Below, piece by piece: positions 2,015-63,502 of a stretch of 64,000 bases of DNA. The notes beneath the pieces are model-generated. The model was given only the letters and a program-made list of their open reading frames with translations. It did not search any database and had not been told where the DNA came from. The stretch's first letter is position 1. Every line of letters begins with the position of its first letter. The stretch is from positions 1 through 64,000 of IMG/VR virus record IMGVR_UViG_3300028840_006004. One strand, written 5' to 3'. Position numbers and translations under genes: made by a program. The stretch is from a virus.

Positions 2015-2407
2015 ATGAAACGATTTACCGATTTGAAAATAGGATCTTCAGTATGGAAAACCCGCGGTTATAATATTGAACTCCATAAAGTAACTTACTT
2101 GATGTTGGAGCCTGTTAACGAACCGCCATTGAAAACAGTCTGTAAAGATTACAAGAGCCGATCGATCTATGTTGAACGTGGAAATTTTGATCCAGGTTGT
2201 ACTCAAATAAAAGGCGAATATGGCGGAATATACTTTTTCAATCTCGAAGAAGCGATCAAGCATGTAAAACAAGAAATGATCAAAGACGTTCTTGAAGAGA
2301 GAAGAAAAATCTTAAAGTCTTTGGATCAAATTGATGAAATTCTACCACGATTTCTGAATTACCATCACGATTTGAATGAGGAACGAGGCTTGAATGAGGA
2401 TTTGTAG
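2015..2407 (+). CDS. hypothetical protein
   Basis: 130-aa ORF in operon. Confidence 0.7.
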   Translation: MKRFTDLKIGSSVWKTRGYNIELHKVTYLMLEPVNEPPLKTVCKDYKSRSIYVERGNFDPGCTQIKGEYGGIYFFNLEEAIKHVKQEMIKDVLEERRKILKSLDQIDEILPRFLNYHHDLNEERGLNEDL

Positions 2408-2415
2408 TATCTTCG
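2408..2415 (+). promoter_or_regulatory. possible Bacteroidota -7 promoter variant (TATCTTCG)
   Basis: One mismatch to TAnnTTTG, in the intergenic gap before 2455; no well-spaced -33 element. Confidence 0.35.
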
Positions 2416-2454
2416 CTGAGTAGTCCAATTAATAATCATTTAAACAGTAATCAG

Positions 2455-2769
2455 ATGGAAAAAGTACCTATTAAATTTGTGGTAGAAATCCAAGTAGGAC
2501 AAAATGGTGTAGTCAACACCCAGATTAGCTCGATAGACGGGCAAGCAATTATGTACAACGAGATTATCGGCGCAATGGAAACCTCCAAATCAATGTTCAT
2601 ACGACAGAATATTGCACTGGAAGAACAAGCACCTCCTCCTCCGAAAAAAGAAATTCCGATGATGGATGGTCCAACTAAGCCAGCTGTATTGGAAGTATCC
2701 AGGCCTAATAAAGAGCCAGAACCAGTTCGTGATCCTGGTGATATGATAGAGTCTGAAAATAAAAGTTGA
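2455..2769 (+). CDS. hypothetical protein with Pro-rich tail
   Basis: 104-aa ORF with an A-rich initiation region. Confidence 0.75.
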   Translation: MEKVPIKFVVEIQVGQNGVVNTQISSIDGQAIMYNEIIGAMETSKSMFIRQNIALEEQAPPPPKKEIPMMDGPTKPAVLEVSRPNKEPEPVRDPGDMIESENKS

Positions 2770-2795
2770 TAATCGGCAAAAGTTTTATACTTTTG
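2766..2795 (+). promoter_or_regulatory. Bacteroidota primary-sigma promoter (-33 TTG, 19-nt spacer, -7 TACTTTTG)
   Basis: TTG at 2766-2768; TAnnTTTG at 2788-2795. Confidence 0.7.
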
Positions 2796-2797
2796 TC

Positions 2798-2904
2798 ATG
2801 TGGAATTTGTGATTGATTATAGTAACGTATGTTCTTTGAGCGCAAGCTCATCAGTCATAAATTCCCATACCTACCCTTCACCTGCAAAGCTGGAGGGTTT
2901 TTTT
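2798..2904 (+). ncRNA. putative small structured RNA (about 105 nt)
   Basis: Bounded by a promoter and a terminator; 15-bp stem 2802-2816/2851-2865 with two G-U pairs; internal tgagc-GCAA-gctca hairpin at 2837-2850. Confidence 0.6.
2874..2904 (+). terminator. Rho-independent terminator
   Basis: cccttca/tggaggg stem followed by 7 T. Confidence 0.75.
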
Positions 2905-3190
2905 ATAGGCTGTTCTAAACATCGCTACAGCCAGGGAATTAGCCAACCCGAAACAAAAAGAGAATCAAAACCTGGTACTCGATCCCAACACGAACATAAC
3001 CCGAAGCAATGTCCCACCGCCGACAACTTCGTTGCGAAATATATGGTGGCCTTTAATTAGGTTTTCGCGAGAGTGTTACCTCGATAGAGGCGAGGAATGG
3101 ATTGTCACCAGTAGATTGGTTTGGCCGAAATGATTGCCAGTCGTCCCTATATTCTGACACCATGATCAGAGGGTAGGGCGGCTTGTATTT
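2905..3190. other. structured non-coding region (ncRNA, leader or origin candidate)
   Basis: Higher GC than flanks; stems 2908-2932, 3014-3049, 3079-3090 and 3139-3183; AACCCGAA at 2945 and 2998. Confidence 0.45.
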
Positions 3191-3209
3191 ACTCGTAAAA
3201 TCTTAATAA

Positions 3210-4001
3210 ATGAAAGAATCAGATAAATTAAAAAAGCAGTTAGATGCTGTGCTTAAAAATGAAGCCGAAGAAGCACACAAAAACAAAGTGGCTGAGGCTA
3301 CGAAATATGTCAAAAAGGCATATAAAAATGTAATAGTCAAAAGCAGATCGACTTACATTAATTACAAATGGTTTAAAGAAGTTAAGGTTGAAAATCCATA
3401 TAACGCCGGTGATCCTAAACGAATACTACTTGTGTACGAAACTGTTGCGGTTATGATAGATACTGCTTGGCGTACTGGTATCGAATATTATCGTAGAGGT
3501 AATGCTGAATTCTTGGATAAAGACATGTTCAGTTACGACAATATTTATAAATGGACCGAAATTCCGGAAGATGAATGGGGAGGAGTTGTTAAAGCTGTAA
3601 AAGCATTGACTAAAAACTTGATTGCTGAAATAGATGACGGCAAAATTAAACCTTTAAATCACATGTCCGGTGTAGAATATACATACCATAATGTTCGTGA
3701 AAAACAAAAACACTTGTTAGATCTACCTCACATAAAACTCGAAAAACGTGAACCCTTCTTGATAGGAGAAACGATCTTCCGTGTAGATGACCTGTACATC
3801 ATCTCACCACAATCTATCAAATACGCCATAGAGGTATTAGAAAGAAAGGCATATTCTGATCAAGACAGCACCAGAGTTCTCTCAGCAATGGGATATCGTA
3901 ATCGTCACGATGAATCAGCTGCTTGTTATAACCTAATCAATAAACTGGAAAACTATGAAAAATACCTCGTTCAAAGTGAGGATCAAAAAAGTGCATTATA
4001 A
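3210..4001 (+). CDS. hypothetical protein
   Basis: 263-aa ORF, no motif recognised. Confidence 0.85.
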   Translation: MKESDKLKKQLDAVLKNEAEEAHKNKVAEATKYVKKAYKNVIVKSRSTYINYKWFKEVKVENPYNAGDPKRILLVYETVAVMIDTAWRTGIEYYRRGNAEFLDKDMFSYDNIYKWTEIPEDEWGGVVKAVKALTKNLIAEIDDGKIKPLNHMSGVEYTYHNVREKQKHLLDLPHIKLEKREPFLIGETIFRVDDLYIISPQSIKYAIEVLERKAYSDQDSTRVLSAMGYRNRHDESAACYNLINKLENYEKYLVQSEDQKSAL

Positions 4002-4176
4002 ATACTCTGAAGTATTTAGTGTAGGAGATGTAGTTGAATTCAGCAAGAATGAGAAAACAGGAAACTATGTACTAAAGTCCAATGTCGATGGAGAGCTTTA
4101 TTCCGCTGAAGATTACGGGAAATGTTTCAAAATGCATGCAATTTACGATGAACTTTTCGAGAAGATTGACGAATAA
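3955..4176 (+). CDS. hypothetical protein
   Basis: 73-aa ORF. Confidence 0.65.
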   Translation: MKNTSFKVRIKKVHYKYSEVFSVGDVVEFSKNEKTGNYVLKSNVDGELYSAEDYGKCFKMHAIYDELFEKIDE

Positions 4177-4182
4177 ATTGTA

Positions 4183-4190
4183 TAATTTTG
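4183..4190 (+). promoter_or_regulatory. Bacteroidota -7 promoter element TAATTTTG
   Basis: Exact TAnnTTTG in the intergenic gap upstream of the sigma gene; -33 element unclear. Confidence 0.5.
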
Positions 4191-4229
4191 ACACGTACAT
4201 TTCTTATTAAATATTGTTGGTTTTTGATT

Positions 4230-4260
4230 CCGGGCTGGCCGTACACCAGCCTGGTTTTTT
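4230..4260 (+). terminator. Rho-independent terminator/attenuator directly before the sigma gene
   Basis: ccgggctgg/ccagcctgg stem plus 6 T; ATG at 4263. Confidence 0.75.
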
Positions 4261-4262
4261 CA

Positions 4263-4697
4263 ATGAAGAATTACGGGATATATAAAGGACTGGTCAGAAG
4301 AAGCATACATAACAAGCATGACGTAGATGATGTCTACCACAATGCTCTTCTAAAGTTCTATTCATACAATCCTGATCTAAACGACAGGTTCCCGCATTCA
4401 TTCTTATACCAAGCAATTCAATGGGCAATTACTGATTATTACAGGGATAAATACAGAATGCATCGTAAGTATTTACCGGAAGAGGTCTTAACACTGGCCG
4501 AATTTGATAGAGATTTCCGGGAATTATCCAACCTTGTATTATCAAAAGCTCCTCAACATGTACATTTACAGATCCAAGGATTTTCTCAAAAAGAAATAGC
4601 CAGGATTCTGAACACTACTGTAAATGCAGTAAAAGCAAAAAAATTCAAATTTATCAGGAAAGCAAGAAAATACTTGCTTAATGATATGTACGTATAA
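4263..4697 (+). CDS. ECF-type sigma-70 family RNA polymerase sigma factor
   Basis: Region-2-like DVDDVYHNALLKF...FLYQAIQWAITDYYR; region-4 HTH GFSQKEIARILNTTVNAVKAK; start reset to ATG 4263. Confidence 0.8.
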   Translation: MKNYGIYKGLVRRSIHNKHDVDDVYHNALLKFYSYNPDLNDRFPHSFLYQAIQWAITDYYRDKYRMHRKYLPEEVLTLAEFDRDFRELSNLVLSKAPQHVHLQIQGFSQKEIARILNTTVNAVKAKKFKFIRKARKYLLNDMYV

Positions 4698-54735: not shown

Positions 54736-55767
54736 TTAAGCAAAATCCTCCGGCTTCGGAACTGCAACTGTATGCAGCGAGCCATCTTGTTTTCTTGGAG
54801 CAAGTCTGGTTTTGTCTAATAATTCTTGCTTATACTCTTCTTTGAAGTTGCTGAGAAAATTCTTCAGCCCTCCCTCACTCTGTTTCAATTTATGATAAAT
54901 GAAAAGAGTGTCATATAAGACTTCATCATCACTGAATAATTCGCGTGTCCTGGAGTAACCTGTTTCAGGATTAATCTCAACAGCATCAGTGAAAATTTGT
55001 TTGAACGCTTCCTGTTCCTGTGGCGTGTGTGGAATTCCTCCGATATCCGTAGCGGAAGCTTTTTTTGCGAACAGCGCATCGACTGTCTGTTTCACCGTAG
55101 TAGCATTTGCTTTCTCAGCTTCAACCCGGATATTCTCCGATAACTTTGCCTGGTGCTTTTCGTTTTCCAGGTCAATGTTTTGATATAACTGATTTTTACG
55201 CTCATTGGCTTTCGTATCCCTGTCAATGGGGTTCATATTGTCTACATAGGATTCAACATCTTCCCTGGTCCATCCATTAGGATTTTCCTCTGTTTTTCCA
55301 TTTTCTTGAATCAAACTCTGAATGAGAAAATCTCTGCTCGGCATTGCTTTTACCGTTTCGGCAAGCATTTGCTGACGGATAAACTCTTCAGAATTTAAGC
55401 CTTGTTCTTTTGCCTTGTTATAAGACTGAACAAATGGATCATCAGTTGAAGATGTTACCCCGCTGGTAACATTCTGTTTAAAAAAATCATACTGCTCCTG
55501 AGGTGACATTGTTGAAAAGTTTTCAGGGAGAGTAAACTCTTTCCCATTAATTTTCATGTCATTCAAAAACGCAGTATTAAAGTCTGCAGCCGGTGTTGGA
55601 TCCGCTGGCGGGTCTTTTGGCGGGTCTGCGGGTGGAGTTGCCGGTGGATTAGCTGGTGGGCTTGCCGGCGATGTTGGATTAGGATCTGGTGTCGGCGGAT
55701 TTGCCGGGCCTGGAGGCTGTGGTCCGTTAATGGACTCCTCAATAGAAATAAATTTACTTCCTTCCAT
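54736..55767 (-). CDS. putative scaffolding protein
   Basis: Between portal and MCP; Pro-rich disordered N-terminus and acidic helical body. Confidence 0.65.
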   Translation of the reverse strand: MEGSKFISIEESINGPQPPGPANPPTPDPNPTSPASPPANPPATPPADPPKDPPADPTPAADFNTAFLNDMKINGKEFTLPENFSTMSPQEQYDFFKQNVTSGVTSSTDDPFVQSYNKAKEQGLNSEEFIRQQMLAETVKAMPSRDFLIQSLIQENGKTEENPNGWTREDVESYVDNMNPIDRDTKANERKNQLYQNIDLENEKHQAKLSENIRVEAEKANATTVKQTVDALFAKKASATDIGGIPHTPQEQEAFKQIFTDAVEINPETGYSRTRELFSDDEVLYDTLFIYHKLKQSEGGLKNFLSNFKEEYKQELLDKTRLAPRKQDGSLHTVAVPKPEDFA

Positions 55768-55771
55768 GGTA

Positions 55772-55802
55772 CAAAATTAATTTAAAATTTAAAAAATATC
55801 AA
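55772..55802 (-). promoter_or_regulatory. Bacteroidota primary-sigma promoter for the scaffold/MCP operon
   Basis: Minus strand TTG (55802-55800), 20-nt spacer, TAATTTTG (55779-55772); ATG 4 nt downstream. Confidence 0.6.
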
Positions 55803-63485: not shown

Positions 63486-63502
63486 AACAAAATTAACCCA
63501 AT

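Follow-up and report, generated by a model that had tools for sequence, protein, structure and literature searches.

A candidate gene for a structured small RNA of about 105 nt in a divergent crAss-like phage

Introduction

Lambdoid phages carry compact units in which a host-type promoter is followed by a structured RNA and an intrinsic terminator. The OOP RNA, the "6S" transcript of pR'–tR', and the put RNAs of HK022 are of this kind. OOP is a trans-acting antisense RNA; pR'–tR' and put are the visible part of an antitermination switch.

The primary sigma factor of Bacteroidota has TAnnTTTG as its −7 box, and an intergenic small RNA (sRNA) of Bacteroides counts as high-confidence when it has a primary-sigma promoter and an intrinsic terminator (PMC7366714). 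[quoted passage not shown] This pair of unexplained, very abundant intergenic RNAs is the only published hint that we found for RNAs of crAss-like phages. Few viruses of the gut and of other Bacteroidota-rich habitats are as abundant as these phages, and their RNA biology is almost unknown.

Here we describe a locus in a stretch of 64,000 nucleotides (the window), which is the first part of a 92,626-bp viral record (IMGVR_UViG_3300028840_006004). An earlier note had proposed a self-contained phage sRNA gene at 2766–2904, and all the elements that it listed can be read in the sequence where it placed them. By the features used for intergenic sRNAs of Bacteroidota (Ryan et al. 2020), the locus has a promoter with a predicted start, a 3' terminator, and an intergenic, non-coding position. 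The best explanation, at a probability of about 0.5, is a non-coding RNA of ~105 nt with a gene of its own, a stand-alone small RNA of a crAss-like phage. The small-RNA interpretation as a whole is partly supported.

Results

The locus lies in a large gene-free gap of a divergent phage

The viral record contains a 6810-aa ORF, its structural genes form the usual block on the minus strand, and its 144-bp terminal repeat looks like the overlap of a circular assembly. The terminase (TerL) is only 24–28% identical to those of known Crassvirales, and the source is therefore taken to be a deeply divergent crAss-like phage. A single relative of TerL, at 65% identity, sits on a 4.9-kb contig. A block of rightward genes extends from ~73 kb through the end of the record to ~13 kb. 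The RNA locus lies inside this block, in a 440-bp gap (2770–3209) that is the second-largest gene-free stretch of a gene-dense genome. The GC content of the gap (0.43) is the highest among all gaps, compared with 0.38 for the genome overall. The largest gene-free gap, at 81566–82071 (506 bp), has a GC content of 0.40. Recoding of stop codons in the gap was rejected, as the 6810-aa ORF and neighbors are open under table 11.

The elements of the locus, all on the plus strand, are as follows.

2766..2769, plus strand: TTGA, a candidate −33 element that shares bases with the TGA stop of ORF 2455..2769
2775..2797, plus strand: 9-bp inverted repeat GGCAAAAGT / ACTTTTGTC with a 5-nt loop, folding as a hairpin
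2788..2795, plus strand: candidate −7 box TACTTTTG, intergenic, fitting the Bacteroidota primary-sigma consensus TAnnTTTG
2798..2868, plus strand: 5'-terminal long hairpin (−25.5 kcal/mol alone, z −5.4), with the predicted transcription start (2798–2802) at its foot
2869..2873, plus strand: single-stranded linker ACCUA, predicted unpaired with a probability of about 0.9 or more
2874..2904, plus strand: intrinsic terminator with an imperfect 9-bp stem, a GCAA loop, and U7
2800..3060, plus strand: 86-aa ORF overlapping the RNA, judged spurious

The remainder of the gap (2905–3209) is richer in GC (0.46–0.48). Its fold is not significant overall (z −1.7), so the RNA module appears as a discrete unit. 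An exception within this remainder is a long hairpin at ~3141–3186, just ahead of ORF 3210. The sequence CCTACCCTT (2871–2879), which spans the linker and the 5' arm of the terminator, is complementary to GAGGGTAGG at ~3170–3178 in the 3' arm of that hairpin.

The −7 box is of a type that the phage uses

TAnnTTTG is depleted in the window. It occurs 40 times where 65 are expected, and all 100 shuffles hold at least 40. The motif ends 3–9 nt before the ATG of five minus-strand genes, compared with an expectation of 0.33–0.49 and a maximum of 4 in 2000 shuffles. These perfect boxes are the following.

55772–55779 of the window, minus strand: perfect TAnnTTTG before an ATG
63488–63495 of the window, minus strand: perfect TAnnTTTG before an ATG
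68745 of the genome, minus strand: perfect TAnnTTTG before an ATG
72832 of the genome, minus strand: perfect TAnnTTTG before an ATG
76638 of the genome, minus strand: perfect TAnnTTTG before an ATG

This enrichment suggests that the phage uses the motif and that the five genes are leaderless or nearly so, with mRNAs that host polymerase would make, and it makes a Bacteroidota host probable. The host-type promoter of the earlier note is borne out to this extent: its box belongs to a type that the phage places before its own genes.

The box at 2788 is one of 10 intergenic copies of TAnnTTTG. It follows TTGA by a spacer of 19 nt, and TTGA at a spacing of 19–20 nt also accompanies two of the five pre-ATG copies, 55772(−) and 68745(−). 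The −33 element at 2766–2769 is TTGA and not TTTG, and the window shows no excess of the bipartite pattern TTGA-N17-20-TAnnTTTG, with 3 copies where 2.1 are expected. We consider the promoter call at 2766–2795 reasonable, with a credibility that comes from its context and not from the bipartite pattern. Transcription is predicted to start 3–7 nt past the −7 box, where the pairing of the long stem begins.

The inverted repeat at 2775–2797 takes up the promoter spacer and runs into the −7 box. It could be a hairpin at the 3' end of the upstream mRNA or, in the DNA, an operator that a dimeric repressor binds.

The locus can also be read from its upstream side, as a module at the end of an operon. 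The hairpins and the terminator would then be the 3' UTR of the upstream early operon (~145–2769), and the promoter-like box would be a chance match or a minor promoter. The role of the long stem would be to shield the mRNA at its 3' end or to serve as a processing site for a double-strand RNase, and any sRNA would be derived from the 3' UTR. Early mRNAs of T7 have processing sites of this kind. Several observations agree with such a module. The genes between 145 and 2769 (~2.6 kb) are packed without gaps on the plus strand, and the only nearby plus-strand terminators are at 112–138, 2874–2904, and 4230–4260. As there is no other, the terminator at 2874–2904 must end the 145–2769 unit. Because the element directly follows the packed genes, its hairpin and terminator would also stand at the 3' end of the operon mRNA, whether or not the promoter fires. 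The further hairpin at 2775–2797 comes directly after the stop codon, the bipartite promoter pattern lacks enrichment, and 3'-UTR-derived sRNAs are known in Bacteroides (PMC7366714). Two points count against it. A terminator alone would suffice to end the operon, and the extra 71-nt hairpin, among the most stable structures of the genome, needs a reason of its own. A perfect TAnnTTTG in a genome that avoids the motif, with a start exactly at the foot of the stem, would also be an unlikely coincidence. We rate the operon-end module as unlikely, though a serious contender, and it can be compatible with a stand-alone sRNA.

The predicted RNA is highly structured on one strand

The 105-nt RNA has a folding energy of −37.1 kcal/mol, compared with −19.5 ± 2.95 for shuffled sequences (n = 200; z −5.97), none of which folds as well. 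Among 12,338 windows of 105 nt from both strands of the whole 92.6-kb genome, the element ranks in the top 14. Its stability is specific to the plus strand, as the reverse complement folds at −27.9 kcal/mol (z −3.2), 9 kcal/mol worse. The structure described in the earlier note is confirmed by these values.

The core of the fold is a 15-bp stem (2802–2816/2851–2865) with only two non-Watson–Crick positions, G2809–U2858 and U2813–G2854. Pairing of AUG (2798–2800) with CAU (2866–2868) brings the stem to 18 bp and leaves U2801 as a bulge. The stem encloses a largely unpaired, A/U-rich loop (2817–2837, ~20 nt) and a 4-bp hairpin capped by GCAA (GAGC-GCAA-GCUC, 2838–2849). GNRA (GCAA) loops are found on both hairpins. 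All three non-Watson–Crick pairs, two in the stem and one in the terminator, are G–U on the plus strand. The earlier note had taken the G–U pairs as a sign of selection on RNA structure. Both stem positions are indeed G–U; as an argument for selection the observation is statistically weak, since three G–U pairs and no A–C mismatch have a chance of about 1 in 8 under neutrality.

The most stable fold of the genome is elsewhere, at 55561–55740, in a local GC island (about 0.6). That segment encodes a Pro/Ala/Asn/Asp-rich, low-complexity N-terminal stretch of a 343-aa protein (54736..55767, minus strand). Its fold is a compositional effect and not an RNA element.

The 15-bp arms and their 34-bp spacer form an inverted repeat in DNA too. 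The element might thus act as DNA, either as a protein-binding site (operator, partition, or replication site) or as a MITE inserted into the gap. There is a ParB-like gene 1.8 kb downstream, and MITEs common to Bacteroidota and their phages have been described (PMC11602168). Against a role as DNA, the arms are complementary at only 13 of 15 positions as DNA and fall outside the 25 longest inverted repeats in the window; the locus is distinctive only when G–U pairs count. There is no turn in GC skew at the site. The element is single-copy in the phage genome, no direct target-site duplication flanks it, and the genomes of 185,579 species lack its internal 20-mers, for which metagenomes gave one chance match only. 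A MITE was rejected on the single copy, the missing flanking repeat, and the absence of the internal 20-mer from the genome collection. An element acting at the DNA level is very improbable.

The terminator is not part of a detectable switch

The terminator stem (2874–2897, −10.4 kcal/mol, with one G–U pair) is followed by a run of seven T at 2898–2904. It is fully intergenic. A scan of the 92.6-kb genome found only about seven canonical intergenic terminators, this one included, and so the terminator that the earlier note had placed after the stem is well founded. In folding tests, it still forms when the 5' arm of the long stem is blocked. When its own 5' arm was forced to pair upstream, no antiterminator partner was found. 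Classical attenuation or a riboswitch is unsupported, because no mutually exclusive antiterminator structure folds. A classical attenuator or a riboswitch leader was rejected: whether or not the long stem is formed, the terminator folds.

Terminator hairpins with T-runs also occur at 112–138 and 4230–4260 and, in genome coordinates, at 78639–78666 and 91743–91765. All four lie ~35 nt or less from the next ATG, and three of them 2–11 nt. Terminators that abut ATGs in this way, with little or no room for a promoter, suggest that termination is leaky or that another polymerase reads the rightward genes.

One of these sites belongs to a second promoter–terminator unit. A box, TAATTTTG, lies at 4183–4190, 7 nt past the stop of ORF 3955..4176. 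It is followed by a U-rich, unstructured stretch of ~35 nt and then by the strong terminator at 4230–4260 (−16.1 kcal/mol, T6). The ATG of a sigma-70-like gene follows the terminator by 2 nt, at 4263. From its layout, the 4183–4263 unit could encode an sRNA of ~65 nt with a single-stranded 5' part, or it could be a terminator-gated leader of the sigma gene.

The two units raise the question of whether the terminator at 2874–2904 is regulated. In such a scheme, host polymerase would start at the 2788–2795 box and normally stop at 2904. A phage factor, or the hairpin acting in cis, would allow read-through into the 305-nt leader and genes 3210..4176, and the 105-nt RNA would be a by-product. Lambda pR'–tR', which yields the short "6S" transcript, and the put RNAs of HK022 work by this logic. 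No perfect TAnnTTTG lies between the terminator and ORF 3210, which agrees with transcription from the upstream box. The order of stop codon, box, terminator, and gene recurs 1.4 kb downstream at 4183–4263, before the sigma-like gene, and the boxes at 2788 and 4183 are the only perfect intergenic TAnnTTTG on the plus strand in the first 13 kb. Other evidence disfavors the scheme: the failure of any mutually exclusive antiterminator to fold, the lack of a match to an Rfam cis-regulatory family, and a 305-nt spacer past the terminator that is unusual for such a switch. The flanking plus-strand genes are without host-type promoters and so probably use another polymerase, as the early genes of phi14:2 do, which counts against it as well. 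We therefore regard a regulated terminator next to its promoter as doubtful.

The region has the codon usage of spurious ORFs

ORF 2800..3060 has a codon score of −0.06. Called small genes have a mean of +0.18 and a minimum of −0.05, and spurious ORFs a mean of −0.13. The ORF thus scores as spurious ORFs do and lower than any called small gene. The ORF has no match in Pfam or PHROG. Among 1.84 billion protein representatives it has two matches, both giant repeat-containing proteins. The aligned match is to a repeat unit of such a protein and covers residues 51–86, which lie outside the RNA; the cysteines of the repeat are absent, and the match is inflated by repetition. On codon usage and these matches, the ORF looks spurious and the region looks non-coding.

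A second frame opens at ATG 2798 and has four codons (M-W-N-L-stop). We judge it a coincidence because its AUG is paired within the stem.

A protein-coding gene in place of an RNA would have to be one of these two, the 86-aa ORF or a leaderless four-codon mini-ORF. The former is open under table 11. The latter has its ATG 3 nt past the −7 box, like the leaderless-looking genes of the phage. The larger ORF would need reading through the terminator and has only repeat-protein artifacts as database matches, with no family behind them; the mini-ORF has its AUG held by CAU 2866–2868. We give a coding function almost no credence.

The RNA and its neighbors match no known family

With Rfam 15, in a library that includes models of Bacteroides sRNAs, no family matches anywhere in the 64-kb window at gathering thresholds. 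At E ≤ 10 in 2650–3350, the best score is ~20 bits (E about 1), compared with thresholds of 55–111. The model RF04177 reaches 13 bits elsewhere in the genome and not at the RNA, and its Bacteroides thetaiotaomicron control passes. The earlier note had not recognized the family, which agrees with these searches. With regard to an RNA anti-CRISPR, which would be a solitary repeat unit, the CRISPR-DR families of Rfam, whose repeats may not include those of the host, gave no match at E ≤ 10 in 2650–3350. A search of the region rejected a tRNA or tmRNA.

Homologues were sought in DNA and protein collections. Neither blastn of 2400–3400 nor tblastn of both flanking ORFs matched any of 50,697 phage records. 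In IMG/VR, neither peptide patterns from the 263-aa ORF and the ParB-like ORF nor an exact 21-mer gave a match. A 20-mer searched in JGI metagenome contigs had a single chance match, in an unrelated GC-rich contig that shares nothing else. A 20-mer from the RNA and, separately, TerL were absent from the genomes of 185,579 species. Against 5.8 billion proteins, the 263-aa, 272-aa, and 104-aa ORFs matched only themselves. By these searches, both genes that flank the gap and the downstream ParB-like gene are ORFans. A covariance model built from the single RNA sequence (R1) found only itself in its own genome, and against phi14:2 and four other Crassvirales genomes it found nothing credible (best E 0.2).

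Discussion

We favor a stand-alone sRNA gene at 2766–2904. Host RNA polymerase with its primary sigma factor would bind TTGA–19 nt–TACTTTTG and initiate at ~2798–2802, independently of the upstream operon. The 5' end of the transcript would immediately be locked into the 18-bp stem, and transcription would stop at the intrinsic terminator (U7, 2898–2904). With a paired 5' end and a 3' terminator hairpin, the RNA would be expected to be long-lived. It could be made from DNA entry onward, because a host-type promoter needs no phage factor. The host is probably a member of Bacteroidota.

As to function, the only sizeable exposed part of the RNA is the loop at 2817–2837 (~20 nt), which most likely would base-pair in trans with a host transcript. 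Pairing of the loop with a target had also been proposed by the earlier note, and within the phage this part found no support. Against all 100 phage translation start regions, the best pairing was −16.7 kcal/mol (p = 0.15 compared with shuffled loops), and against the downstream leader the pairing was no better than for shuffles. A role of the long helix as a protein-binding decoy would be less likely than pairing in trans through the loop.

The RNA might also not be a base-pairing regulator at all. Made by host polymerase at DNA entry, it would then act in counter-defence or on the polymerase, which we consider a long shot. For counter-defence, the long helix or the loop might titrate an RNA-binding or RNA-sensing immune protein of the host. 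For action on the polymerase, the hairpin might work in cis, letting transcripts from its own promoter pass the terminator while those started upstream stop. If this cis-acting form were true, the RNA and its twin unit at 4183–4263 would make a timing switch of a kind undescribed for crAss-like phages.

Taken alone, the 2798–2904 RNA adds a candidate rather than a mechanism. The candidate is compact and cleanly bounded: 140 bp take in its promoter, 5' stem, exposed loop, and terminator. It is easy to put through in vitro transcription and reporter tests.

Comparison with known systems

The predicted gene resembles those of the Bacteroides sRNAs GibS, BTnc201/MasB, and FopS (PMC7366714, PMC11697453). 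They share an intergenic position, a promoter of the TAnnTTTG type, a length of ~100 nt, and a Rho-independent terminator. The phage RNA differs from all three in having no similarity to them in sequence or by covariance model, and in being phage-borne where they are chromosomal. GibS and FopS have a single-stranded 5' seed before the terminator, whereas the 5' end of the phage RNA would be buried in the 18-bp stem and the exposed part would be an internal loop.

The abundant early non-coding RNAs of phi14:2 come from another crAss-like phage and, like the RNA described here, from an unusually long gap between small rightward genes. For phi14:2, transcription runs in the direction of the genes and expression was measured, whereas the 2798–2904 RNA is predicted from sequence. 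The gene-free regions of phi14:2 are also longer (~1.7 kb, compared with 440 bp here). No homology to its intergenic RNAs was found by nhmmer, by blastn, or with R1 on the whole phi14:2 record, and no canonical terminator was found inside its intergenic regions. In phi14:2 (NC_021806), a TAnnTTTG box, TACCTTTG, at 2929–2936, 25 nt past the stop of g004, heads a 1.7-kb gene-free stretch. Because this box heads the stretch, the abundant phi14:2 RNA may start at a host-type promoter.

With the lambdoid OOP, "6S", and put RNAs, the phage RNA was compared by architecture alone, and it shares with them the succession of promoter, structured RNA, and terminator. Its phage lineage and host phylum are unrelated to theirs, and it has no overlapping antisense target gene and no identifiable antitermination factor or site. 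By analogy, its position, a hairpin between a promoter and a terminator, would fit an element like put of HK022.
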